From an uncultured Acidobacteriota bacterium (GTDB lineage: Bacteria > Acidobacteriota > UBA6911 > RPQK01 > JAPXNP01): a stretch of 64,000 nucleotides of DNA. Under the pieces are notes generated by a model. That model saw nothing but the letters and a program-made list of their open reading frames with translations. It made no database searches and had not been told where the DNA came from. Location: positions 320,001-384,000 of the forward strand of contig CAVZRV010000008.1 of NCBI GenBank assembly GCA_963777605.1. The letters are read 5' to 3'. Below are positions 8,058 to 21,025 of the stretch, piece after piece; within the stretch, counting starts at the first letter, position 1; each line of letters opens with the position of its first letter. The translations under genes were made by a program, and so were the position numbers.

Positions 8058-8368
8058 CGGAGTGATGAATCATTGAATCCAGGAACCCCGAATGGCCAGT
8101 CGCGAACTGAAAGTGCGAAATAGAATCCGTCCCTGCGATCAGGCAAGACTTCCGCACTACGGCTGTCGCGAAAGGAGGCAACGGAAGCATTCGCTTCCTG
8201 AAGACAATCGCAACTGGTTGACGCCGGGAGAAAGCGGAAGCTGCCGCTTCGCGCACTTCCATATCGGGCGTGCGACTTTCCCCCGTCGATCGATCCTGAG
8301 AATCCAAGTCCTGCGCCCGGCCGGGCAGAGGCTCGGACACCTCGGCAGACGTTCAGACCCGGAAGGGG

Positions 8369-9286
8369 CTAAATCATCAGCAGGCGGTCGATCCGCTTGC
8401 TGACGTCGGTCAGGTAGGCGAGGTCACCCGCGTCGAGTTCGGCGATCACGGTGCCTTCGTAGCCGATTTCGTCCAGGGCCTTGCGGACTTCGGGCCAGTC
8501 GATGTCGCCGTCGCCAAGGTTGACGAACTCCGCGCTGAAGGGGCTGAACCCGGTGGTCATCACCTTGAAGTCTTTAAGGTGAACCTTCTTGATTCGGTGG
8601 CCCAACGTGCGGATCCAGTCCTGCGGGTAGCCAAAGATGACCACGTTCCCGACGTCGAAGTAGGCTCGGACCCAGGGGCTCTTGAACTCGTCAACGTAGT
8701 TGGCGAATTCCATCGGGCTCAGGAGGAACTTGTTCCAGACCTCCTCGACCGCGATGGCTACCTTCAGTTCTTCGGCAAGGGGGATCAGTTCCCGGATGTG
8801 TCTCTGAGAGCGCTCGTAGGCGGTCCGGTAAGGAGTTGCGGCATCGACCACGGCGGGGACCAGCAGCACGGCGTCGGCTCCCCACAGCGAGGCGTTGCGA
8901 AGCGACGTGCGCATGCCGTCGAGGCTCTTCTTGACGACCTCGGGATCTCCGCTCGAGAGGGGGTAGGGCCAGTGGGCCTGGTTCATCACGGAACTGAGGC
9001 GGATCCCGGCTTTCTCCGCCGCCGTCTTGATTTTCTCCGCCTCGCGCGGGTCTTCGACGGTATACCCTTCGACCACCTCGAAGCCCGCATCCGCGGCGAG
9101 CTTCAACCGCTCGTCGTAGCTGAGCTCTTCGGGCAGCATGCCCCACACCACGCCCTTGGTGAGCTTGGCCTTCTTTGGAACGGCCATCGCCGGAGGAGCA
9201 CCGGCCAGGGAACTTATGATTCCCGCACCCGCAACCACGGCACCAGAAGTCTTGAGAAAATCTCGACGAGAAGATTCGTTATTCAT
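8369..9286 (-). CDS. Tat-exported sugar phosphate isomerase/epimerase (xylose isomerase-like TIM barrel)
   Basis: SRRDFLK Tat motif; EEVWNKFLLSP, YFDVGN and VHLKDF motifs. Confidence 0.9.
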   Translation of the reverse strand: MNNESSRRDFLKTSGAVVAGAGIISSLAGAPPAMAVPKKAKLTKGVVWGMLPEELSYDERLKLAADAGFEVVEGYTVEDPREAEKIKTAAEKAGIRLSSVMNQAHWPYPLSSGDPEVVKKSLDGMRTSLRNASLWGADAVLLVPAVVDAATPYRTAYERSQRHIRELIPLAEELKVAIAVEEVWNKFLLSPMEFANYVDEFKSPWVRAYFDVGNVVIFGYPQDWIRTLGHRIKKVHLKDFKVMTTGFSPFSAEFVNLGDGDIDWPEVRKALDEIGYEGTVIAELDAGDLAYLTDVSKRIDRLLMI

Positions 9287-9394
9287 GGAAATCTTTCCTT
9301 CCGCAGGAGTTGTTGAGCAAAATTCTACCCCACAAGGTACACCCTTTGAATCTTCCGCGCGTAGCGGGAGGGGCGCCGCTGACCTGAAACTTCA

Positions 9395-9764
9395 ATTTGG
9401 ATGAACTGGAAGAACTGGATGATTTGGACGCGTTTGGATGGGAATTCGGGCGATCGGTGGAGAGCCAGGGACGTGATTATCGGCTGGATCCTGGTTCCGG
9501 GTCCGGTGCCAGACGTGGATGAGTGATGATCACAGGATCGGCGCCGGACTGGCCCCTGAAGGGGGCCTGTTTCCAGCCCAGGCATTTGCCTGGGTTCACG
9601 GCCCACCCATCAAGAATCCAGCCCTGAAAGGGCGGCACAGCTCTCCGGACGTGAAGAATCGGCGCGACCTTACAGGCCGCAATCGAAATGCAGGACCACA
9701 AACCCAGGGAAAGCCCTGGGCTGGAACCAGGGCGCCTTCCAGCGCCATGAAGCCCGGCGTCGCC
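9395..9764. mobile_element. Non-coding cassette type A, copy 1
   Basis: Near-identical to 9823-10181, 11400-11753 and 15849-16205; bounded by array repeats; contains REP-like palindromes. Confidence 0.8.
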
Positions 9765-9822
9765 AGTTTCACTCTTTGAATGGTCCGGCGGCGGCCGGGG
9801 GCGGGGCTGACTTGAAACTTCA

Positions 9823-10181
9823 TTCGAGATGAGTTGGAAGAACCTGGACGAATTGGATGCGTCTGGACGGGGATTCGGGCGATCGGTGGAGAGCCAGGGA
9901 CGTGATTATCGGCTGGATCCTGGTTCCGGGTCCGGTGCCAGACGTGGATGAGTGATGATCACGGGATCGGCGCCGGACTGGCCCCTGAAGGGGGCCTGTT
10001 TCCAGCCCAGGCATTTGCCTGGGTTTACGGTCCACCCATCAAGAATCCAGCCCTGAAAGGGCGGCACAGCTCTCCGGACGTGAAGAATCGGCGCGACCTT
10101 ACAGGCCGCGATCGCCTTGCCGGGACCACAGACCCAGGGCAAGCCCTGGGCTGAAACCAAGGCGCCTCCAGCGCCAGGTCC
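9823..10181. mobile_element. Non-coding cassette type A, copy 2
   Basis: Same sequence family as 9395-9764; bounded by repeats. Confidence 0.8.
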
Positions 10182-10238
10182 AGTTTCACTGATTGAATGG
10201 TCCGGCGCCGCCGGGGGCGGGGCTGACTTGAAACTTCA

Positions 10239-10516
10239 ATCGAGATGAGTTCCTGGTTCCTGGTTTCTCGTTTCTGGAGGGAAAGTAATCCAGGCATCCC
10301 TGCCTGATATGGCGGCCGGGCAAGCTTGCCCGGCGGAAGTCAACCTTCTCAATCCCAGGTTTATTGATTTCCGGGTTCTTCTGAAATCAGTCCGCCACCG
10401 GGACTGAATCGCACTTTCAGTGCTGCATTGCCGTCTTGGCTCCGATTCCCGGGGCGTTGCCGCCGGGCTGGAAATGACCCTGCGCCGTTGGCGCGCTCAT
10501 CTGGCGATGCTTCACC
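10239..10516. mobile_element. Non-coding cassette type C
   Basis: Unique 278-bp unit between repeats; perfect 20-bp palindrome GCCGGGCAAGCTTGCCCGGC (10315-10334) and REP-like hairpins. Confidence 0.72.
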
Positions 10517-10573
10517 CGTTTCACTGATTGAATGGTCCGGCGCCGCCGGGGGCGGGGCTGACCTGAAACTTCA

Positions 10574-10931
10574 ATCTCGGCAATTCCGCTAACTCTTGTA
10601 TTCTGTGAGAGATGCTGCTGCCGCTGAGAACAGCGAGTGGCGAGAAAAAAGTCGTCTATCGAGCCGTTTGAGCGTGATGGGGACACCACGCCCAATCTCC
10701 GCGAATCCGCATGAGCAGGCTTTTCAAAAGGGGCATGAACGGTGGCCCGGGGTGGCTGTCTGAATGGTCTATTCTGACCTTGAGGAGTGCTCCAAGAGCC
10801 TCACTAATGAATGATCGCACAGCCCGGGACCAAGCTGACTTTGGGGCAAAAATGCGCCAGTGCCTCGAGGGTCTTAACTGCCACTGCTCATGCCGCGCAG
10901 TGGATTTTAATCGATTGATGCGGCCGCGGCA
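10574..10931 (-). mobile_element. Cassette type B: transposase-free unit carrying a bridge/seekRNA-like module, copy 1
   Basis: 10771-10882 aligns by eye at roughly three-quarters identity with the IS110 upstream non-coding region 13579-13690. Confidence 0.8.
10732..10894 (-). ncRNA. Putative orphan guide (bridge/seek-like) RNA
   Basis: Conserved core shared with the IS110 non-coding end, enclosed by a 15-bp inverted repeat (10732-10746 / 10880-10894); strand assumed from transposase orientation. Confidence 0.6.
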
Positions 10932-10981
10932 AGTTTCACTCTTTGAATGGTCCGGCGGCGCACGACTGACCTGAAACTTCA

Positions 10982-11339
10982 ATCTTGGGCAATTCCGCTA
11001 ACTCTTGTATTCTGTAGAGATGCCTGCCGCTGAGAACAGCGAGTGGTGAGAAAAAGTCATTCTATATCAAGAGCCGTTTGACGTGATGGGGACACCACGC
11101 CCAATACTCCGCAAATGCCATGAGCAGGCTTTTCAAAAGGGGCATGAACGGTGGCCCGGGGTGGCTGTCTGAATGGTCTATTCTGACCCTTTGAGAGATC
11201 TGAGCTAATGGAATTTGATCGCACAGCCCGGGACCAAGCTGACTTTGGGGCGAAAAAATGCACAGTGCCTCAGAGGGTCTTGACTGCCACTGCTGATGCC
11301 GCGCGGTGGAGGCTTAATGGATTAGATGGGGCCGGGCCA
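10982..11339 (-). mobile_element. Cassette type B, copy 2 (noisy or degenerate)
   Basis: Colinear with 10574-10931 but with many small indels and substitutions. Confidence 0.7.
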
Positions 11340-11399
11340 AGTTTCACACACCTGAAATGGTCCGGAGCGCCCGGGGAGCGGGGCTGACTTGAAACTTCA

Positions 11400-11753
11400 A
11401 TCGAGATGAGTTGAAGAGTCTGGATGATTTGGACGCGTCTGGACGGGAATTCGGGCGATCGGTGGAGAGCCAGGGACGCGATTATCGGCTGGATCCTGGT
11501 TCCTGGTCCGGTGCCAGACGTGGATGAGTGAAGATCACAGGATCGGCGCCGGGCTGGCCCCTGAAGGGGGCCTGTTTCCAGCCCAGGCATTTGCCTGGGT
11601 TTACGGTTCCCCCATCAAGAATCCAGCCCTGAAAGGGCGGCACAGCTCTCCGGACGTGAAGAATCGGCGCGACCTTACAGGCCGCGATCGAGTTGCGGGA
11701 CCACAGACCCAGGGCAAGCCCTGGGCTGAAACCAAGGCGCCCAGCGCCAGGTC
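11400..11753. mobile_element. Non-coding cassette type A, copy 3
   Basis: Same family as 9823-10181. Confidence 0.8.
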
Positions 11754-11790
11754 CGTTTCACTCTCTGAAGGATCCGCGGAGGGCGCGGGG

Positions 11791-11968
<178 letters not shown>

Positions 11969-12141
11969 ATGATCGACAGCTCGGGACCAAGCTGACTTTG
12001 GGGCAAAAACGCGCCAGTGCCTCGAGGGTCTTAACTGCCACTGCTCATGCCGCGCAGTGGATTTTAGTCGATTGATGCGGCGCGGCAAGTTTCACTCTCT
12101 GAATGATCCGGCGCCGCCGGGGGCCGGGCTGACTTGAAACT

Positions 12142-13518
12142 TCATCCTTGGACCTCCACCGGAACCAGTTTGTAGCCCATGGTTTGGGCCGTGCTGGTGA
12201 GGGACTGGAACCGTTTGAGCCGGTAGCGTGCTTCGTAGGCTTCGGCGCCTTCGTCGACATAGTCCTGACCGAAGCGGAGCATGCGGTAGATGTACTGAGC
12301 CAGTTTGCGGGCGGTGGCGAAGACGGCGGTGCCCCCTCCTTTGCGTCGGGCGATGTGGCGGAAGTAGGCTCCCATCGCCGACTGCGAATGTTTCAGGGAC
12401 AGCGCGGCCATCCTCAGGACATTGGCCACGCGGGTGGAGCCGGTGCCCTGGCGCCGTTTGCGCAGGGGTTTGCCGGCGGAGTAGGCGGTCTTTGGACTCA
12501 GTCGCAGCCAGGACACGAAGTGCTTTTCGACCGGAAACGCCGACAGATCCAGGCCGATCTCGCTGAGGATGAGTTGGGCCGCCGGCGCAGCGATGCCGTC
12601 GATCCGGGTCAGGTCCACGCCGGTCACCCGCCACAGCATCGTGCGTCGCTGCTGCTCTCCCCGTTTGTTCAGCGCCCGCTCCTTGGTGGGCTGGGGATGG
12701 GGCCCCGGCTCCTGATCGGCTCGGTCGCTCGCCTCGAGTCGGTGGAGCACGCGTCCGATCTCCTCGTCATAGTCGGCCAGTTGACCCTGCACGAAGTCAT
12801 ACCACTCCAACGCTTTGCCCAGGTTGAACAGGTGTTCCTCCCGCCACGTCCCCGTCAGATGCTCCGCTATTTTGGCTTCCGACTTCCGACAGCGCCGGTC
12901 CCGCAAAGCCGCCAGTCGAAACGGATCCCGTTCGCCGCCGACCATCGCCCGCACGATCGCCATTCCGGTCTGTCCCGTCAGATCCGTCACCGCCCGGTGC
13001 ACCTGCACGTTCATCTGGTCGAGCGCCTTCTGCATCATCTGCACCGCCTGCCCCGCCAGCCTCACCAGTCCGGCCCGCTCCCGCTCGAGCGCCCGCAACT
13101 GACAGATCGCTTCGGCGGGTCGGAACGATCCCCGCAGCAAACCACAACTGTGCAGCAACTGGATCCACTGGCAATCCTTGATGTCGGTCTTGCGGCCCGG
13201 GACGTACTTCAACTGCCGCGCATTGACCAGCACCACTTCGAATCCCCGCGACACCAACAGCTCGTACAGCGGGATCCAGTACACCCCGGTCGCTTCCATC
13301 GCCACCGATTCGATCCTGTCGGCCTCGAGTCGGTCCAATACCAACTCCAACTCCGGTGTCGTCGTCCCAAAACAAAGGACCTTCAACTGGCCCGTCTCCC
13401 GATCGGGCCAACACCCGGCGCTTTCGCACGAACCCAGATCGATTCCCGCCACCCGCTCCCGGATCACTCGCAAATCCTGTTGACGCTTCCGACTTCTCGA
13501 CTTCCGCTTCGATCTCAT
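12142..13518 (-). CDS. IS110-family DEDD recombinase/transposase (458 aa)
   Basis: AGIDLG, AMEATGVYW and RKTDIKD (DEDD); C-terminal IDGIA...LSEIGLDLSAF...LSPKTAYSAGK...ATARKLA; RBS AGGAGGA; stop TGA abuts the inverted repeat. Confidence 0.96.
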   Translation of the reverse strand: MRSKRKSRSRKRQQDLRVIRERVAGIDLGSCESAGCWPDRETGQLKVLCFGTTTPELELVLDRLEADRIESVAMEATGVYWIPLYELLVSRGFEVVLVNARQLKYVPGRKTDIKDCQWIQLLHSCGLLRGSFRPAEAICQLRALERERAGLVRLAGQAVQMMQKALDQMNVQVHRAVTDLTGQTGMAIVRAMVGGERDPFRLAALRDRRCRKSEAKIAEHLTGTWREEHLFNLGKALEWYDFVQGQLADYDEEIGRVLHRLEASDRADQEPGPHPQPTKERALNKRGEQQRRTMLWRVTGVDLTRIDGIAAPAAQLILSEIGLDLSAFPVEKHFVSWLRLSPKTAYSAGKPLRKRRQGTGSTRVANVLRMAALSLKHSQSAMGAYFRHIARRKGGGTAVFATARKLAQYIYRMLRFGQDYVDEGAEAYEARYRLKRFQSLTSTAQTMGYKLVPVEVQG

Positions 13519-13541
13519 GCTAGCTTTGTCCTCCTGGTGAA

Positions 13542-13704
13542 TCGGCACAGGCTCGGGCTCGAGGTGGCGTGAATTTGGATTCTGACTTCGGGGAGTGCCC
13601 TGAGCGGCCTCGCCAATGAATGATCGCCTCACTCGAAACCAGGCTGACTTTGGGGCAACATGCTCCAGTGCACAACGGGTCTGAACTGCCCGGGCCTGTG
13701 CCGA
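13542..13704 (-). ncRNA. Putative bridge/seekRNA of IS110 copy 1
   Basis: 17-bp closing inverted repeat (13542-13558 / 13688-13704) and internal hairpins; contains GATCATTCA and AAGTCAG, which match the element junctions. Confidence 0.65.
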
Positions 13705-13793
13705 ACGCAAGCATAGCCGACTCTCGCAGGCTTGGCTCAGTTTCACTCTCTGAATGGTCCGGCGGCGGCCGGGGGCGGGGCTGACTTGAAACT

Positions 13794-15170
13794 TCATCCT
13801 TGGACCTCCACCGGAACCAGTTTGTAGCCCATGGTTTGGGCCGTGCTGGTGAGGGACTGGAACCGTTTGAGCCGGTAGCGTGCTTCGTAGGCTTCGGCGC
13901 CTTCGTCGACATAGTCCTGACCGAAGCGGAGCATGCGGTAGATGTACTGAGCCAGTTTGCGGGCGGTGGCGAAGACGGCGGTGCCCCCTCCTTTGCGTCG
14001 GGCGATGTGGCGGAAGTAGGCTCCCATCGCCGACTGCGAATGTTTCAGGGACAGCGCGGCCATCCTCAGGACATTGGCCACGCGGGTGGAGCCGGTGCCC
14101 TGGCGCCGTTTGCGCAGGGGTTTGCCGGCGGAGTAGGCGGTCTTTGGACTCAGTCGCAGCCAGGACACGAAGTGCTTTTCGACCGGAAACGCCGACAGAT
14201 CCAGGCCGATCTCGCTGAGGATGAGTTGGGCCGCCGGCGCAGCGATGCCGTCGATCCGGGTCAGGTCCACGCCGGTCACCCGCCACAGCATCGTGCGTCG
14301 CTGCTGCTCTCCCCGTTTGTTCAGCGCCCGCTCCTTGGTGGGCTGGGGATGGGGCCCCGGCTCCTGATCGGCTCGGTCGCTCGCCTCGAGTCGGTGGAGC
14401 ACGCGTCCGATCTCCTCGTCATAGTCGGCCAGTTGACCCTGCACGAAGTCATACCACTCCAACGCTTTGCCCAGGTTGAACAGGTGTTCCTCCCGCCACG
14501 TCCCCGTCAGATGCTCCGCTATTTTGGCTTCCGACTTCCGACAGCGCCGGTCCCGCAAAGCCGCCAGTCGAAACGGATCCCGTTCGCCGCCGACCATCGC
14601 CCGCACGATCGCCATTCCGGTCTGTCCCGTCAGATCCGTCACCGCCCGGTGCACCTGCACGTTCATCTGGTCGAGCGCCTTCTGCATCATCTGCACCGCC
14701 TGCCCCGCCAGCCTCACCAGTCCGGCCCGCTCCCGCTCGAGCGCCCGCAACTGACAGATCGCTTCGGCGGGTCGGAACGATCCCCGCAGCAAACCACAAC
14801 TGTGCAGCAACTGGATCCACTGGCAATCCTTGATGTCGGTCTTGCGGCCCGGGACGTACTTCAACTGCCGCGCATTGACCAGCACCACTTCGAATCCCCG
14901 CGACACCAACAGCTCGTACAGCGGGATCCAGTACACCCCGGTCGCTTCCATCGCCACCGATTCGATCCTGTCGGCCTCGAGTCGGTCCAATACCAACTCC
15001 AACTCCGGTGTCGTCGTCCCAAAACAAAGGACCTTCAACTGGCCCGTCTCCCGATCGGGCCAACACCCGGCGCTTTCGCACGAACCCAGATCGATTCCCG
15101 CCACCCGCTCCCGGATCACTCGCAAACCCTGTTGACGCTTCCGACTTCTCGACTTCCGCTTCGATCTCAT
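13794..15170 (-). CDS. IS110-family DEDD recombinase/transposase (458 aa), second copy
   Basis: Translation identical to copy 1 except one D/G change near the N-terminus. Confidence 0.95.
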   Translation of the reverse strand: MRSKRKSRSRKRQQGLRVIRERVAGIDLGSCESAGCWPDRETGQLKVLCFGTTTPELELVLDRLEADRIESVAMEATGVYWIPLYELLVSRGFEVVLVNARQLKYVPGRKTDIKDCQWIQLLHSCGLLRGSFRPAEAICQLRALERERAGLVRLAGQAVQMMQKALDQMNVQVHRAVTDLTGQTGMAIVRAMVGGERDPFRLAALRDRRCRKSEAKIAEHLTGTWREEHLFNLGKALEWYDFVQGQLADYDEEIGRVLHRLEASDRADQEPGPHPQPTKERALNKRGEQQRRTMLWRVTGVDLTRIDGIAAPAAQLILSEIGLDLSAFPVEKHFVSWLRLSPKTAYSAGKPLRKRRQGTGSTRVANVLRMAALSLKHSQSAMGAYFRHIARRKGGGTAVFATARKLAQYIYRMLRFGQDYVDEGAEAYEARYRLKRFQSLTSTAQTMGYKLVPVEVQG

Positions 15171-15193
15171 GCTAGCTTTGTCCTCCTGGTGAA

Positions 15194-15356
15194 TCGGCAC
15201 AGGCTCGGGCTCGAGGTGGCGTGAATTTGGATTCTGACTTCGGGGAGTGCCCTGAGCGGCCTCGCCAATGAATGATCGCCTCACTCGAAACCAGGCTGAC
15301 TTTGGGGCAACATGCTCCAGTGCACAACGGGTCTGAACTGCCCGGGCCTGTGCCGA
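15194..15356 (-). ncRNA. Putative bridge/seekRNA of IS110 copy 2
   Basis: Same sequence as 13542-13704. Confidence 0.62.
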
Positions 15357-15448
15357 ACGCAAGCATAGCCGACTCTCGCAGGCTTGGCTCAGTTTCACTC
15401 TCTGAATGGTCCGGCGGCGGCCGGGGGCGGGGCTGACTTGAAACTTCA

Positions 15449-15791
15449 ATCGAGATGAATTGAAGACCTAACACTTGTATTCTCGTTTCTGGAGAGATTA
15501 TTATTGAGGCATCTGGGCCAGGACGTGATTATTTCGGCTGGATCTGGTTGGTAAGGTGACTGGATGAGTGATATTTTAACAGATCGGCCAAAAGGGCCCC
15601 TAAAGGGGGCCTGTTCTTCAGGATTTACTGGGTTCTTTTTTTATCGGCTTCCACTCATCAAGAATCAGCGCTGAAAGTGCTGAACAATGCCATCTCGGAC
15701 GAATGAGAATCAGAGGGAGACTTAGCCGCACAGCCGAGAAAAAAGACTCAGTGAAGCCCTTTGATAGCGCTGAACTGGGGAAGTTTCACCA
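15449..15791. other. Chimeric/noisy cassette (patchwork of A, B and C fragments)
   Basis: Contains C-like TCTCGTTTCTGGAG, B-like CTTGTATTCT and GAGAAAAAAG, and A-like GGACGTGATTAT, GGCCCCTAAAGGGGGCCTG and CATCAAGAATC. Confidence 0.6.
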
Positions 15792-15848
15792 AGTTTCACT
15801 CTTTGAATGATCCGGCGCCGCCAGAATTAAGACTGACTTGAAACTTCA

Positions 15849-16205
15849 AAATGGATGACTGGAAGAACCTGGATGATTTGGACGCGTTTGGATGGGAATT
15901 CGGGCGATCGGTGGAGAGCCAGGGACGTGATTATCGGCTGGATCCTGGTTCCGGGTCCGGTGCCAGACGTGGATGAGTGATGATCACAGGATCGGCGCCG
16001 GACTGGCCCCTGAAGGGGGCCTGTTTCCAGCCCAGGCATTTGCCTGGGTTCACGGCCCACCCATCAAGAATCCAGCCCTGAAAGGGCGGCACAGCTCTCC
16101 GGACGTGAAGAATCGGCGCGACCTTACAGGCCGCGATCGCCTTGCCGGGACCACAGACCCAAGGCAAGCCCTGGGCTGAAACCAAGGCGCCTCAGCGCCA
16201 GGTCG
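15849..16205. mobile_element. Non-coding cassette type A, copy 4
   Basis: Same family as 9395-9764. Confidence 0.8.
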
Positions 16206-16262
16206 AGTTTCACTCTCTGAATGGTCCGGCGGCGCCGGGGGCGCGGCTGACTTGAAACTTCA

Positions 16263-16555
16263 ATTTGGATGAACTGGAAATCCTGGATGATTTGGACGCG
16301 TCTGGATGGAGATTCGGGCGATCGGTGGAACTCAGAAGCCTGGTTCTCGGCTGGATCCTGGATACCCCGATTTCAGAACGCGAGTGTCAGCGAGCGCGGC
16401 TCCGGGCGATGGTGAGTCAGCGGAAGTGCTGCCGGAGGCCGGAACCGCGGGATGGAGTCAAGATCCGAGGTGGGCGATGGATGAAGGCCTGGATACGCGC
16501 GCGCTGACTTGCGTACTGAATGCGTGAAAACCGCGATCCCGGGCCGGAGTTGGCA
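16263..16555. mobile_element. Non-coding cassette type D
   Basis: First ~95 bp homologous to type A, followed by a different inverted-repeat pair (CAGAACGCGAGTGTCAGCGAGCGCG ... CGCGCGCGCTGACTTGCGTACTG). Confidence 0.68.
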
Positions 16556-16562
16556 AGCTTCA

Positions 16563-17074
16563 CTATTCGAATGATCCCCGCAGCGCGGAATCACTGGAAC
16601 CCGCCTGAAACTCGGGATCGATCGTCGCGAAATGGAGCAGGTCAAAGAATCCCAGGCGAAGCTGCTTCAACGCAAAGCTCAAGGCGATCAGCGGAAGGGT
16701 CGCGGATACCAGCAAAGTAATCCAGAATGCGGTTGGAATCTGGATTGTGCCCTGGATCGAATCGAGGATCACTAGACTGGCACCAAGTGTCAGGACCCAA
16801 TATGCCCATAAGAGAAGGCGCTTCCAGTGGCTCGAGGCCGCAGGAGTCGTGTCACGTGCCAAGGCGGCCTCAAGTTCCTGGTCAAACTGGGGAGAGAGGT
16901 GGGGAACGGGAAGCGCTGCCAAGCTTGGGCCAGTTCCTGGTGACCGAAAAGAGTATCCCGGCACTGATCGCAGATCTCGAGATGGGACTCCCATTGCCTG
17001 CGCTCTTCGCCCGATTTGAATGCTCCTTCGAAGAACCGCTCAATCTGGCCCAGGCTGGGGCAGTACTTATCCAT
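16563..17074 (-). CDS. Zinc-finger (zf-HC2) membrane anti-sigma factor (frameshifted near 16900-16960)
   Basis: HLEICDQC motif in the 5' frame; two hydrophobic helices in the 3' frame; directly downstream of an ECF sigma factor. Confidence 0.75.
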
Positions 17075-17075
17075 T

Positions 17076-17645
17076 TCAGACCTTGCCTCTCAGTGAACGT
17101 CCCAGCAACTTTCTTGCCCGGAACAGGTGAGACTTCACCGTCGAGGATTTGAGATCGAGATACTGCGCAATCTCCGCCACCGACTGGTCAAGCCAGTAGT
17201 GCAGGAAGACGACCGACCGAGCGGGTTCGGGAAGTCTCTCCACGCACTTCAGAATTCGCTCGTCGCGTTCGTGGTCGCTCGCCTTCCGCAGGGGACTTCG
17301 CCGGGGGGATGCCTGCGAGCGAAGCGTGCTTTCGCCCGAGTGGTGGAATTTAAGGCGGGGTTTCCGGCGCCAGTCGATCGAACGATTAAATGCAATCCGG
17401 TAAAGCCACGTGCTGAAACGGCTGTCAAAGCGAAACTGCTTCAGGTCCCGGTGGACCGTCAGAAACACCTCCTGCACGACTTCTTCGGCTTCTTCCGTGA
17501 ACGAGGGCCCGAGAACCGAGAGAACCAGTCGAAACACTTTCTCCTTGTAGCGACGAACGAGAATCGCAAAGAAGTGATCCTTCCCCGTCTTCAAATAGTG
17601 CCCGACCAGTTCCTCGTCTTTCCAGAGATCGGAGTTGTCGCTCAC
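17076..17645 (-). CDS. ECF RNA polymerase sigma factor
   Basis: AEEVVQEVFL, FSTWLYRIAFN and TVKSHLFRARKLL; start codon approximate. Confidence 0.92.
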   Translation of the reverse strand: MSDNSDLWKDEELVGHYLKTGKDHFFAILVRRYKEKVFRLVLSVLGPSFTEEAEEVVQEVFLTVHRDLKQFRFDSRFSTWLYRIAFNRSIDWRRKPRLKFHHSGESTLRSQASPRRSPLRKASDHERDERILKCVERLPEPARSVVFLHYWLDQSVAEIAQYLDLKSSTVKSHLFRARKLLGRSLRGKV

Positions 17646-17713
17646 CGCAGTTGGGGGAACGGTGTCCTTCAGCGGAACACAAAAGAAGTCGAGAGAGTAA
17701 GTCGCAGACAACA

Positions 17714-18145
17714 CTATTTTGATTTTAGGTCTTCCTTGAAACCCTTGCTCAAGAGGAAGAACAGAAGAAGGCCGAAGCCACAGAGTATTGGGATCAATCC
17801 GACCGTCCAGACGGGCTGAAGATCTAAGTTCCCGGAGAAGTGAAAGGCGATGCAAATGCCGATTCCAGCCGGAATCAGGAACAGTCCGAACCCCAGAGCG
17901 ATGAGCCGAACCCAAACGAGGACTTTCTCCTGCAGCGAACCATCCGACATCACCGTGTGTTCCGGGAGTTGGAGATTATCGATCGGCAGTCCTTTTTCCA
18001 TGGCCATAATCCTTTCCTTGTGAATCATTTCCCGCTGTTTGACCAGCGTCTGATCGAGCAGAAAGCGTTTTAGCATTCCGTAGCCGACAAATCCGAAGAC
18101 GACCAGCAAGAGAAACAACAGCACTTCCATCGTCCCTACCTCCAT
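17714..18145 (-). CDS. Membrane protein (DUF6249-like) heading the ECF operon
   Basis: TM helix, then HKERIMAMEKG, then two TM helices. Confidence 0.7.
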   Translation of the reverse strand: MEVGTMEVLLFLLLVVFGFVGYGMLKRFLLDQTLVKQREMIHKERIMAMEKGLPIDNLQLPEHTVMSDGSLQEKVLVWVRLIALGFGLFLIPAGIGICIAFHFSGNLDLQPVWTVGLIPILCGFGLLLFFLLSKGFKEDLKSK

Positions 18146-18425
18146 TTCTTACGAGACACCCTTTGGACGGAAGCGGCGGAGTTCCGGTTGCAGATTTCTT
18201 GAGAACCCGGGCAGGACAGTCTCCGATGTCGAAAGTGATGAAGGCTAAGACTGGCGCGAGCATGCCGTTGCTATTGCTTCGGGTCGGGACTTCTTCTCTC
18301 CTTTCAGGATGCGTTCACCAAGCCTGAAGTCGGAGTAAACAACTCGAGCTTCAGTCTCGAGTTCCCCACGAATCGATTGACCCGGCAAGTTGGGCTCTCT
18401 ATAACTGGTGTTGCGGGAGGTTCAC

Positions 18426-20282
18426 GTGAAGCATGCTCCGATCACGGTTTCAATCGTCCTCACTATCATCCTTGCTGCGGCAGCCGGTCTGGTCCAGCCT
18501 CAGGGTGAGTTCGTCTCTCCCTTCGAGATTCGAAAGGAGATGATCCCCATGCGGGACGGAATCCGCCTGAACACTCGGATCTTCATCCCCCGCGACCAGC
18601 CGGAGCCGCTCCCCATCATCCTGATTCGGAGCCCTTACGGTGTTGCGGGGGCAGAAGGGAACTTCGTTACTGCGCTGAAGACCCTGGCTGATGAAGGCTA
18701 CATCTTTGCCTTCCAGGACATTCGCGGCAAATTCGAGTCGGAAGGCGAGTTTGTGATGCAGCGCCCGGCTCGCGAGCCAGGAGATTCCACTGCTCTCGAT
18801 GAAGGAACCGACACCTACGACACGATCGAGTGGATGCTTGAGAACGTGACCCCGAACAACGGCCGGGTCGGCATGCTGGGAGTATCCTATCTCGGTTGGA
18901 CGACCATCATGGCGTCGCTGGAGCCTCACCCTGCATTGAAGGCGATTTCCCCCCAGGCTTCACCCGCCGATATGTGGATTGGGGACGACTTCCACCACAA
19001 CGGCGCATTCCGCCTCAGCTATGCGTTCGAATACGCCTACCAGGTGGATGGTGGTAAGGCGTCCCAGCACTTTCCCTTTGACCGCTACGACACCTATGAC
19101 TGGTACCTGGCTCTGGGCCCGCTCTCCAATGTCAATCCGCGTTTCTTTCACGGGGAGATCCCAACCTGGAACGACTACGTGGCCCATCCCGACTACGATG
19201 CCTTCTGGAAGCGTCAGACTCTGATTCCCCGGATCACCGGTGTGAAGGTGCCCACCCTGAACGTCGCGGGCTGGTGGGACCAGGAAGACTTCTACGGCCC
19301 CCTGCGTATTTATGAAACATTGGAAAGGTACGATTCAGCAGGTATGAACTACCTGGTGGTGGGTCCCTGGAACCATGGAGGATGGGCACGGGGAAACGGT
19401 TCCAGCCTTGGTCCCATCCCTTTCGACAGTTCCACCTCCCGCTACTTTCGTGACGAGGTGCAGGCCCCGTGGTTCGCGTATTTTCTGAAGGACAAGGGCC
19501 GGCTGCAGCTTCCGGAAGCGCTCACCTTTGAAGCTGGGTCGAACCGTTGGCGACGATGGGACTCGTGGCCGCCCCGCTCCCGGGTCGAGCGCCGTGACCT
19601 GTACTTCAGTTCCGACGGAATCCTGGCCGATATGGCACCCGAGGAGGGAACTGGAGCATTCGATAGCTACGTCTCTGACCCGGCTCACCCGGTTCCCTAC
19701 CGCCACCAGCCGATCCAGGCGACCTATTTCCCGGGTGGTTCCTCCTGGAGCACGTGGCTTGTTGAGGACCAGCGCTTCGTCGATGACCGGGCCGACGTTT
19801 TGAGCTGGGAGAGCGCTCCCCTGGAGCAGGAACTCACGATAGCCGGGGAGGTCGTGGCCCATCTCTTTGCATCTACCAGTGGAACTGACGCGGATTGGGT
19901 CGTCAAGCTGATCGACGTCTTTCCGGAGTACTACCCGGAGAATTGGGAACTGGCCGGTTACCAGTTAATGGTCTCAAACGAGGTCTTTCGTGGCCGATAC
20001 CGGGAGAGTTTCGAGAAGCCGGAACCGATCGAAGCCGGCGAGGTCCTGGAATACAACTTCAGTCTCCACACTCAGAATTACTCATTCCTCAAGGGACATC
20101 GAATCATGGTCCAGGTCCAGAGCACCTGGTTCCCTTTGATCGACCGAAACCCGCAGACCTTCGTAGAGAACATCTTCAAGGCGGGGGCCGCGGATTTTCG
20201 GGTTGCCGAAAACCGCGTTTACCGTACCGCCGAGTTCCCGTCCGGTGTTTCCATTCCCGTGGTTGCCGGCCCTCCTGAGTGA
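18426..20282 (+). CDS. CocE/NonD family hydrolase (alpha-amino acid ester hydrolase-like)
   Basis: IPMRDGIRL, QDIRGKFESEG, nucleophile motif GVSYLG, GDDFHHNGAF and GPWNHGGW; signal peptide. Confidence 0.93.
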   Translation: MKHAPITVSIVLTIILAAAAGLVQPQGEFVSPFEIRKEMIPMRDGIRLNTRIFIPRDQPEPLPIILIRSPYGVAGAEGNFVTALKTLADEGYIFAFQDIRGKFESEGEFVMQRPAREPGDSTALDEGTDTYDTIEWMLENVTPNNGRVGMLGVSYLGWTTIMASLEPHPALKAISPQASPADMWIGDDFHHNGAFRLSYAFEYAYQVDGGKASQHFPFDRYDTYDWYLALGPLSNVNPRFFHGEIPTWNDYVAHPDYDAFWKRQTLIPRITGVKVPTLNVAGWWDQEDFYGPLRIYETLERYDSAGMNYLVVGPWNHGGWARGNGSSLGPIPFDSSTSRYFRDEVQAPWFAYFLKDKGRLQLPEALTFEAGSNRWRRWDSWPPRSRVERRDLYFSSDGILADMAPEEGTGAFDSYVSDPAHPVPYRHQPIQATYFPGGSSWSTWLVEDQRFVDDRADVLSWESAPLEQELTIAGEVVAHLFASTSGTDADWVVKLIDVFPEYYPENWELAGYQLMVSNEVFRGRYRESFEKPEPIEAGEVLEYNFSLHTQNYSFLKGHRIMVQVQSTWFPLIDRNPQTFVENIFKAGAADFRVAENRVYRTAEFPSGVSIPVVAGPPE

Positions 20283-20554
20283 CCTTTCCTCGGAATTTCC
20301 CGTTCGAGGGTAAGCCGGAATTGCAGAGGTGTATCAGAAATGAAGTGGCGGGCTGCCGCTACATCGGGATTCGGGAGCCGATTACCGCCTTACGATAATT
20401 GCTTCCGCGGCGGTCACGGAGAAGGATTGAGGTTCTTGACCGCGTTTTGAAAGTTCCCGGCTGCAGCGTCCGCGGTGCCCTTCGGGACTACGATGTCCTT
20501 GAGGTTTCCGGAAGCCTCCACCATCTCAAGGGCGCCTTTGCGTGCTTGGTTGCA

Positions 20555-21025
20555 CTACCTGGGTGGCGGCGCAACCGTCATGCCGTGCCGCCGGAAGACC
20601 TCGGTCATCTTGGCAGGATCGGGCGGACCGCCGCCGGCGCCATTGATCACCTCAGCCGCTTCACGGAAGTATGCCGGCCCCATGATTGCGGGGGTGATGA
20701 CGGCGAGTTGCTTGACGTCTTCACTCCCAAAGTTGTCGAATCGGTGTACCGCGCCGCGGGGTATGCAGAGTGCCTCGCCGGGGCCCACTTCGACGGGAGT
20801 GCCATCGACGGTCCACGTCAGGGTGCCCTCGATACCGTAGAGGACTTCCTCGTAGTCGTTGTTCCTGTGGGCCGGTGCCGCCAGCTTCTCTCCGGCCGGG
20901 ACTCGGAACTCGAAAACAGAGACGCTTCCGCGGGAATCATCGGCCGTCAACAGGAACCGAATTCCCAGCGGACCAATATGGATGGACTCTTCCGAAGGAT
21001 TCACCTGGATCTTCTGGCGGTGCAT
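20555..21025 (-). CDS. Cupin domain protein
   Basis: PAHRNNDYEEVLYGIEG and GPGEALCIPRGAVHRF; RBS AAGGAGG. Confidence 0.88.
   Translation of the reverse strand: MHRQKIQVNPSEESIHIGPLGIRFLLTADDSRGSVSVFEFRVPAGEKLAAPAHRNNDYEEVLYGIEGTLTWTVDGTPVEVGPGEALCIPRGAVHRFDNFGSEDVKQLAVITPAIMGPAYFREAAEVINGAGGGPPDPAKMTEVFRRHGMTVAPPPR

Follow-up and report, generated by a model that had tools for sequence, protein, structure and literature searches.

A 58-base repeat in a 64,000-nucleotide stretch of contig CAVZRV010000008.1 from an uncultured Acidobacteriota bacterium (the window) is the seam between head-to-tail insertion sequence (IS) elements of the IS110 family, and the GC-rich segment at its centre, which a first-pass annotation had taken for a separate 28-bp linker, opens the left end of the next element. 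On the minus strand, window positions 13796-13739 read TGA-AGTTTCA-AG-TCA-GCCCCGCCCCCGGCCGCCGCCGGACCAT-TCA-GAGAG-TGAAACT, in exact agreement with that annotation, including its 7-bp inverted repeats and the stop codon of the IS110-family gene, which directly touches the right inverted repeat. The repeat is real and its copy number lies far above chance: a profile built from it finds 160 copies with nhmmer in the 6.73-Mb genome of 53 contigs, and 11 copies of the right end with its core (TGAAGTTTCA[A/G]GTCAG) lie in uniform orientation between window positions 9379 and 16262, at spacings of about 335, 400-429 and 1652 bp. We consider it probable that these seams belong to a system in which a non-coding region of the bridge-RNA type serves a one-sided target and arrays grow by insertion. 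The array, composed of IS110-family elements and their gene-less derivatives, is ordinary but instructive.

The IS itself is a 1652-bp unit present twice in tandem, its copies differing at 1 of 1653 bases. Its 458-residue transposase has the domain order of IS110-family recombinases, with an N-terminal DEDD/RuvC-like domain (PF01548, DEDD_Tnp_IS110, 1.1e-20) and a C-terminal PF02371 domain (Transposase_20, 5.9e-10), and it matches the model NF033542, ‘IS110 family RNA-guided transposase’, with 221 bits against a cut-off of 140; a tblastn comparison with plasmids returned only generic ‘IS110 family transposase’ names among the matches. The non-coding region of about 220 nt lies 5' of the transposase gene, and the placing of the repeat at a junction between IS ends, with the non-coding region on this side, was correct from the start. 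PF01548 domains number only four in the genome, all in copies of this IS, and about 150 transposase-less elements share the IS ends. Among 62 adjacent repeat pairs genome-wide, 38 belong to a cassette family that we call A (about 150, 330 or 415 bp), 7 to a family B, 4 to the IS and the remainder to small groups. Family B carries about 220 nt homologous to the IS non-coding region and lacks the transposase gene. Family-A cassettes (between window positions 9379 and 16262) hold a conserved short reading frame opposite the transposase strand, followed by several GC-rich hairpins; on the plus strand (e.g. 15849-15975) the frame M-D-[DE]-[WL]-x-x-L-D-D-L-D-A-x-G-W-x-F-G-R-S-V-E starts directly after the repeat.

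Where such elements begin and end can be read from relatives inserted in unique DNA. In a Bryobacterales metagenome-assembled genome (MAG), transposase relatives of 57-58% amino-acid identity occur in about 50 dispersed copies. At the 52 loci examined there, similarity between copies begins on the left at (C)AAGCC-AG followed by TCGCGCCCCCGGGCGGGGCCCGGATCATTCGGTTGGAAACAC and ends on the right with ..GTGTTTCACACC-AG (also given as ..GGGTGTTTCACACC-AG), beyond which the DNA differs at every locus; the segment after the first AG is homologous to CCCCGCCCCCGGCCGCCGCCGGACCATTCAGAGAGTGAAACT of the element here. A relative of 51% identity, examined at 16 loci of a Planctomycetota MAG, is inserted in the palindrome GTACGGAGCC-AG-GCTCCGTAC, with uninterrupted GGAGCC-AG-GCTCC sites alongside, and its left end starts TCCTGCCCCGG...GGGCAGGAAACT (..GGAAACT). 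The same layout recurs in two copies (55%) in the genome G029, which shares its order with that of the window, and in a Nostoc plasmid relative (45%). Every one of these relatives has three things inside the element: the GC-rich segment, the sequence at the second TCA, and the left inverted repeat. Since relatives in unique DNA show this start, the left end of the element here is placed directly after the first ..TC-AG; solo copies with boundaries different from those first proposed are thus what the relatives display. Tandem copies exist among the relatives too: at 5 of the 52 Bryobacterales loci right end, AG and left end meet directly, and at 3 more a variant left end follows.

Some Bryobacterales copies are joined in other ways. 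At loci L028, L017 and L018 a duplicated 37-bp piece of flank lies between copies, or a copy is joined to a 3' fragment of the transposase gene at GCA-AG-GCG; these joints look like off-target or half-site events at AG. In the Nostoc plasmid (L088, 1810-1960) a second left end and a bridge-RNA-like region directly follow the relative, with no evident transposase gene in the stretch read, and RNA-only modules may be common in this subfamily.

The copies within the window's own genome lead to the same boundaries. A search for TGAAGTTTCA[A/G]GTCAG with up to 2 mismatches finds 152 right ends (most often AGGTCAG, 39, and AAGTCAG, 33), of which 65 lead into a left end and 87 into unrelated DNA; downstream of these lone right ends the information content is zero across 30 positions, and the right flank is not conserved. 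Of the 160 left ends 72 could be anchored, and 37 of these 72 have a single-copy upstream flank with the consensus gtttCagGTcAG. The repeat is accordingly best parsed, on sequence comparison, into a 16-bp right end (TGA-AGTTTCA-AGTC plus the AG core) and about 42 bp of left end, leaving no separate linker. The inverted repeats at the junction are 41 bp apart, the left one 35 bp inside the left end and the right one 4 nt plus AG from the right end, which departs from the 10-bp IS1111 junction geometry that had been proposed. The core is AG within TC-AG and not TCA: AG is the sole dinucleotide common to left and right junctions in all lineages, a short core as in the IS110 family, and the second TCA of the TCA...TCA direct repeat found here varies in relatives, which read TTCGG, TTCTTG or TTCAGG. 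No empty site for this genome's own copies was found in the assembly.

These boundaries bear directly on the anatomy first suggested, in which the ends were TCA-GAGAG-TGAAACT.. and ..AGTTTCA-AG-TCA, joined through a TCA core in an IS1111-type circle junction, with the linker as target DNA of a filled 31-bp tandem repeat. That anatomy drew on the TCA flanking the linker on both sides, and the extensions of 7 and 3 bp described for the IS1111 family (PMC11187229) would indeed give 10 bp. We now regard it as extremely improbable, for a homologue of the linker lies within the element in relatives sited in unique DNA, and the second TCA is not conserved in all of them. Its predicted circle junction without the linker (..TTCAAG-TCA-GAGAGTGAAAC) has no match with up to 2 mismatches in the window or the genome, and the predicted empty site GGAYCATTCAGCCCC has no exact match and a single unrelated one at 1 mismatch in the 6.73 Mb. 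A pre-existing 31-bp tandem repeat is unnecessary, is contradicted by linker-bearing left ends of single elements that adjoin single-copy DNA, and is not reported by Tandem Repeats Finder in the window. The other option offered at the time was right that the cassette carries the linker along, and the evidence also agrees with its regenerated acceptor site. A staggered exchange through the linker, spanning both TCAs, was likewise considered and dropped, because relatives do not conserve the second TCA.

The internal hairpin CCGGC...GCCGG noticed in the first-pass annotation is real. Compensating changes preserve its pairing within the genome, where stems CCGGC/GCCGG alternate with CCGCG/CGCGG, and across lineages (CCGGGC/GCCCGG, CCGGCC/GGCCGG, CCTGCCC/GGGCAGG). 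Another possibility for the nature of the repeat is suggested by its 160 dispersed copies with this hairpin: it might be an independent host repeat, either an integron attC site or a repetitive extragenic palindrome (REP) spread by a Y1/RAYT protein, with the IS and the cassettes merely lying between copies. The cassette-plus-repeat layout is integron-like, the genome has nine Y1_Tnp matches, and published accounts describe IS110-family elements that target REPs (PMC11208160, PMC12288879). Such an origin is nevertheless very improbable. The halves of the repeat are found apart at element boundaries, as the 87 right ends without a left end and as left ends without a right end; the left half belongs to the IS in four other lineages, and the RNA guides described below match the repeat halves as donor ends. 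None of the nine Y1_Tnp matches has a repeat copy within about 2 kb, the nearest lying some 2.3 kb away. The attC consensus runs in the order AAC...GTT (R'' ..AAC on the 5' side, R' GTT.. on the 3' side), which the order GTTTCA...TGAAAC reverses, and a scan of 38 open reading frames (ORFs) of the window, the extent of the search for IntI, turned up no tyrosine recombinase domain.

What could direct insertion at these boundaries? The non-coding region probably encodes a structured RNA of the bridge-RNA kind, as the family would lead one to expect, and would be expressed; the evidence for it is a covariation-supported fold together with three covarying loop motifs. Seven sequences from four lineages were aligned (the IS, one family-B cassette, two Bryobacterales variants, the Planctomycetota copy and two G029 copies). 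Their consensus fold has 40 pairs in 7 helices with 96.4% of cells paired; 20 of the 40 pairs are changed on both sides, and compensatory pairs make up 11 of 15 in the outer helix. None of 500 shuffles equalled this fold, a comparison that related sequences may win without any structure, and partners slid by 1-3 columns gave at most 49% paired.

The three motifs sit in two internal loops, motif 1 in one and motifs 2 and 3 in the other, and their covariation with the DNA of the left flank and of both element ends marks the non-coding RNA as a bridge RNA. Motif 1 equals the left flank, the AG and the first 1-2 nt of the left end: DNA AAGTC-AG-CC corresponds to RNA AAAGTCAGCC in the element here, AAGCC-AG-TC to AAAGCCAGTC and GGTT-AG-TC to AAGGTTAGTC in the Bryobacterales variants L002 and L001, GAGCC-AG-TC to AGAGCCAGTC in the Planctomycetota, and ATCTT-AG-CC to AATCTTAGCC and AGGTT-AG-C to AAGGTTAGC in the G029 copies L083 and L070. 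The last two copies are 94% identical and share one genome, and motif 1 of each fits its own flank. Motif 3 equals the right end and AG, with right end AAGTC-AG and RNA GAAGTCAG in the element here, AGGTC-AG and AAGGTCAG in family B, ACACC-AG and AACACCAG in Bryobacterales L002, ACACT-AG and TACACTAG in L001, and CAGCTT-AG and CAGCTTAG in G029. The donor guide of family B, AGGTCAG, is thus identical to that family's own right end. Motif 2 equals an internal segment of the left end (GATCATTCA) beside the inverted repeat, and the two covary as ATCATTC, ATGATTC or CCTTCA. Under the rules set out in a published account of bridge RNAs (PMC11208160), guides of top-strand sense are the left-target and left-donor guides, roles that motifs 1 and 3 fit; the overhang of motif 1 by 1-2 nt onto the left end may be the counterpart of the handshake guide described elsewhere (PMC11208158). 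A further TCA-containing motif, GGCAGTTCAGACC, was tried as a guide and dropped, family-B copies reading TTAAGA or TCAAGA there.

Under the favoured reading, the target would be essentially one-sided, CA[A/G]GTC-AG, its right flank not being conserved. Once an element has inserted, the left half of the target and AG would still make up the left junction, followed by nucleotides that motif 1 matches as well, and because the target is one-sided this junction would stay usable after each insertion. The right end CAAGTC-AG here would also mimic the target, leaving both junctions usable; new copies would then land beside old ones and build arrays. Usable junctions on both sides would account for the 65 of 152 right ends that abut a left end and for arrays that interleave unrelated cassette families (A, B, the IS and singletons) in a single orientation, up to about 15 elements long, and an insertion that leaves a usable junction would account for the tandem copies in the Bryobacterales relative. 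The circle junction predicted on these terms is ..TGAAGTTTCA[A/G]GTC-AG-CCCCGCC..CATTCAGAGAGTGAAACT. The roughly 150 transposase-less elements would presumably be moved in trans by the genome's sole IS110-family transposase; PF01548 being confined to the four IS copies, any movement of these elements would have to use this protein, which would catalyse the exchange. The seven family-B elements each retain the RNA sequence, in which the donor guide is altered to fit their own right end.

The same anatomy could also have given rise to arrays solely through tandem duplication or unequal homologous recombination between repeats. The near-identity of the two IS copies speaks for this, as do the near-identical cassettes of families A and B that follow one another on contig C24 and the unequal numbers of cassettes at the homologous C8 and C24 loci; tandem duplication of IS110 modules has been reported in a preprint (bioRxiv 10.64898/2026.08.14.744561). 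As the sole process it is unlikely: duplication alone cannot produce arrays that mix unrelated cassette families in one orientation, many of the right ends abutting a left end do so in two-element pairs scattered over the genome, and the match of the target guide runs across the occupied left junction onto the first 1-2 nt of the left end. Unequal crossing-over surely also contributes to the arrays. Contig C24 (13,845 bp) is collinear with window 8060-20592, its flanks about 93% identical and its tandem IS copies 99.6% identical, and it has more family-A and family-B units than the window array. Either the bin contains a second strain (contamination 5.68%) or the IS has spread recently into both loci.

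Several observations weigh against the favoured reading. A circle junction would equal the tandem junction, and circles are therefore indistinguishable from arrays here. Identical neighbours, that is the two IS copies and the identical family-A and family-B runs on C24, could equally reflect unequal crossing-over. Many of the ‘single-copy’ upstream flanks contain a weak GTTTC, and some may therefore represent right ends in decay and not naive targets. Folded as a single sequence, the non-coding region does no better than shuffles (z = -1.54), and an Rfam scan of window 9000-17000 with E up to 1 found no bridge-RNA family, only two chance-level matches to miRNA and Plasmodium RNA models. All three guides share the sense of the transposase strand, whereas the published descriptions of bridge and seek RNAs give one guide per DNA strand (PMC11208160; PMC11187229). 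Antisense k-mers of at least 6 nt against the repeat number zero in the non-coding region, right-side guides were not found, and inspection of the loop sides opposite the guides gave no convincing match. No counterpart of motif 2 is described in the accounts consulted; this and the missing guides complementary to the top strand are real gaps in the mechanism.

Part of the stretch is contained in 20 listed metagenome runs from 15 studies, 13 of them with half of the words or more, one RNA run contains 0.08 of the words, and the IS appears in contigs from soil, wetland, rhizosphere and salt marsh at 0.34-0.76 of the sampled words (runs X1-X19). Contigs from four runs in four studies cover the IS body, the longest being 1644 nt (13775-15418, 24 differences). 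Depth reaches 185-268 in the repeat bins against 5-21 for most of the IS body; by run, the repeat-bin depth is 52.9-268 in X1, X4 and X6, where it exceeds that of the IS body about 8- to 35-fold, and 31.7 and 6.1 in X8. The cassette family thus seems widespread and far commoner than the transposase gene. ‘Joints’ in these contigs that skip 1592 and 1586 bases are repeat-to-repeat alignments, and the repeat's outer edges are where contigs show loose ends (13738/13739, 13798/13800, 15390/15391, 15444/15449); depth, joints and loose ends neither separate circles from arrays nor place the crossover.

By its described geometry the closest precedent is the ISPpu9/ssr9 system of Pseudomonas putida KT2440, a likeness drawn from the published description. 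According to that description (PMC12288879), ISPpu9 belongs to the IS110 family and has AG as its core; its left A box, 43 bp long, contains an inverted repeat, its right B box measures 16 bp, and where modules adjoin, a single AG serves both boxes of the B-A' junction (16 + 43 - 2 = 57 bp), a length close to that of the repeat here as far as the text allows comparison. The ssr9 module, which has the same boxes and encodes a small RNA in place of a transposase, is described there as moving as its own circle and as present in 8 copies; the window's genome has about 150 transposase-less elements, and its arrays reach about 15 units. Some of the modules here, unlike ssr9 as described, include the guide RNA itself, and the target appears one-sided, in contrast to the REP that ISPpu9 is reported to use. 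No description of transposase-less cassettes with their own bridge-RNA copy turned up in the literature listings and passages covered.

With IS621 and the IS110 group, as portrayed in the published accounts (PMC11208160, PMC11208158), the element shares the recombinase with DEDD and Tnp domains, the non-coding RNA 5' of the gene with two internal loops, guides that include the dinucleotide core, and an extension of 1-2 nt onto partner DNA like that of the handshake guide. It differs from IS621 as described there in having the left-side guides on the 3' side of each loop, a third guide that matches the left end 25-33 nt inside the element, 7-bp inverted repeats that lie far apart and the core AG instead of CT; guides complementary to the top strand were not found here. 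The IS1111 group (ISEc11, IS4321 and others) has subterminal inverted repeats of usually 11-13 bp (7-17 bp reported), with extensions of 7 bp on the left and 3 bp on the right in the account of PMC11187229. Subterminal repeats are present here as well (AGTTTCA/TGAAACT, and GTGTTTC/GAAACAC in the Bryobacterales relative), at 7 bp on the lower limit of that range, and as in IS1111-type seekRNAs, going by the same source, the guide matching the bottom strand lies 3' of its partner. Unlike IS1111 in that description, the left repeat is 35 bp from the end (7 there), the junction spacing is 41 bp (10 there) and the non-coding region lies upstream of the transposase and not downstream; upstream exceptions within the group, such as ISMtsp17, are on record in it (PMC11187229). 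A preprint on expanded IS110 loci describes tandem non-coding units beside an IS110 transposase and tandem whole modules at hundreds of loci, with the statement that the target is not regenerated (bioRxiv 10.64898/2026.08.14.744561). Compared with that account, the one-sided target and the mimicking right end here seem such as would regenerate the target, and the units are also dispersed genome-wide as single elements.

The result is a well-supported correction of the first reading and not a new kind of system. The locus offers a clean natural example for reading the ends of this IS110 subfamily, whose left end includes both the GC-rich hairpin and the distant inverted repeat, and it shows how such elements stack head-to-tail, which is relevant to the annotation of such elements in metagenomes and to engineering. 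If a surviving one-sided target, cassettes mobilised in trans and retuned RNA-only modules are borne out, natural bridge-recombinase systems can run multi-component cassette systems, and their guide geometry would include a third guide inside the left end, distinct from IS621. We entertain only tentatively a further division of labour, which we think rather doubtful: the one transposase-bearing IS would be served by its own guide RNA (..AAGTC-AG) and by the RNA-only family-B cassettes (..AGGTC-AG), donor guides that correspond to the two most frequent right-end types of the genome. Satellite bridge-RNA genes would then widen the range of cassettes open to the one recombinase, and with a one-sided target that outlasts insertion the system would become a self-extending, integron-like array. 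Were this true, an RNA-guided recombinase would have built an integron-like cassette array.

Table 1. Features of the head-to-tail array and of its junction repeat, in window coordinates.
Feature	Position	Strand	Remarks
IS copy A, 1652 bp counting one AG core	13781..15432	-	transposase ORF 15170-13797, stop 13796-13794
IS copy B, 1652 bp	12129..13780	-	transposase ORF 13518-12145, stop 12144-12142
Right end of upstream IS copy	13781..13796	-	TGA stop 13796-13794, inverted repeat AGTTTCA 13793-13787, AGTC 13786-13783, AG core 13782-13781
Left end of downstream IS copy, first 42 bp	13739..13780	-	homologous segment inside element in relatives; persists beside single-copy upstream flank
GC-rich hairpin segment CCCCGCCCCCGGCCGCCGCCGGACCAT, 27 nt	13780-13754	-	part of left end; the former ‘linker’ minus its first G
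TCAGAGAG between GC-rich segment and left inverted repeat	13753-13746	-	part of left end
Left inverted repeat TGAAACT	13745-13739	-	part of left end
5' non-coding region of copy B, putative bridge RNA	13519..13738	-	conserved structure, 20/40 pairs compensatory
Putative left-target guide CCCCAAAGTCAGCC (motif 1)	copy B 13655-13642; copy A 15307-15294	-	covariation with DNA
Putative left-end-internal guide GCGATCATTCA (motif 2)	copy B 13627-13617; copy A 15279-15269	-	covariation with DNA
Putative left-donor guide GAAGTCAGAAT (motif 3)	copy B 13589-13579; copy A 15241-15231	-	covariation with DNA
Head-to-tail array, ~12 elements	9333..16577	-	2 IS copies, family-A and family-B transposase-less cassettes, one singleton
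Degenerate left-end half-sites at array extremes	16577-16557 and 9378-9333	-	array limits
Two family-B cassettes	11383-10966 and 10965-10558	-	left end, IS non-coding RNA homologue, right end ..TTTCAGGTC-AG; no transposase gene
Family-B guide motifs	11250-11237, 10846-10833, 10781-10771	-	homologous to IS non-coding RNA
Homopolymer run	11792-11966	+	161 T then ~14 G (A then C on minus); cuts family-B cassette mid-RNA

The homopolymer run is probably an artefact of assembly or polishing and not biology. At the upper limit of the array, the half-site GGATCATTCGAATAGTGAAGC (16557-16577, minus strand) overlaps the last codons and the stop of a putative anti-sigma ORF (16563-16994), which lies downstream of an extracytoplasmic function (ECF) sigma factor gene (17076-17915); this putative anti-sigma gene may owe its 3' end to the array's first element.

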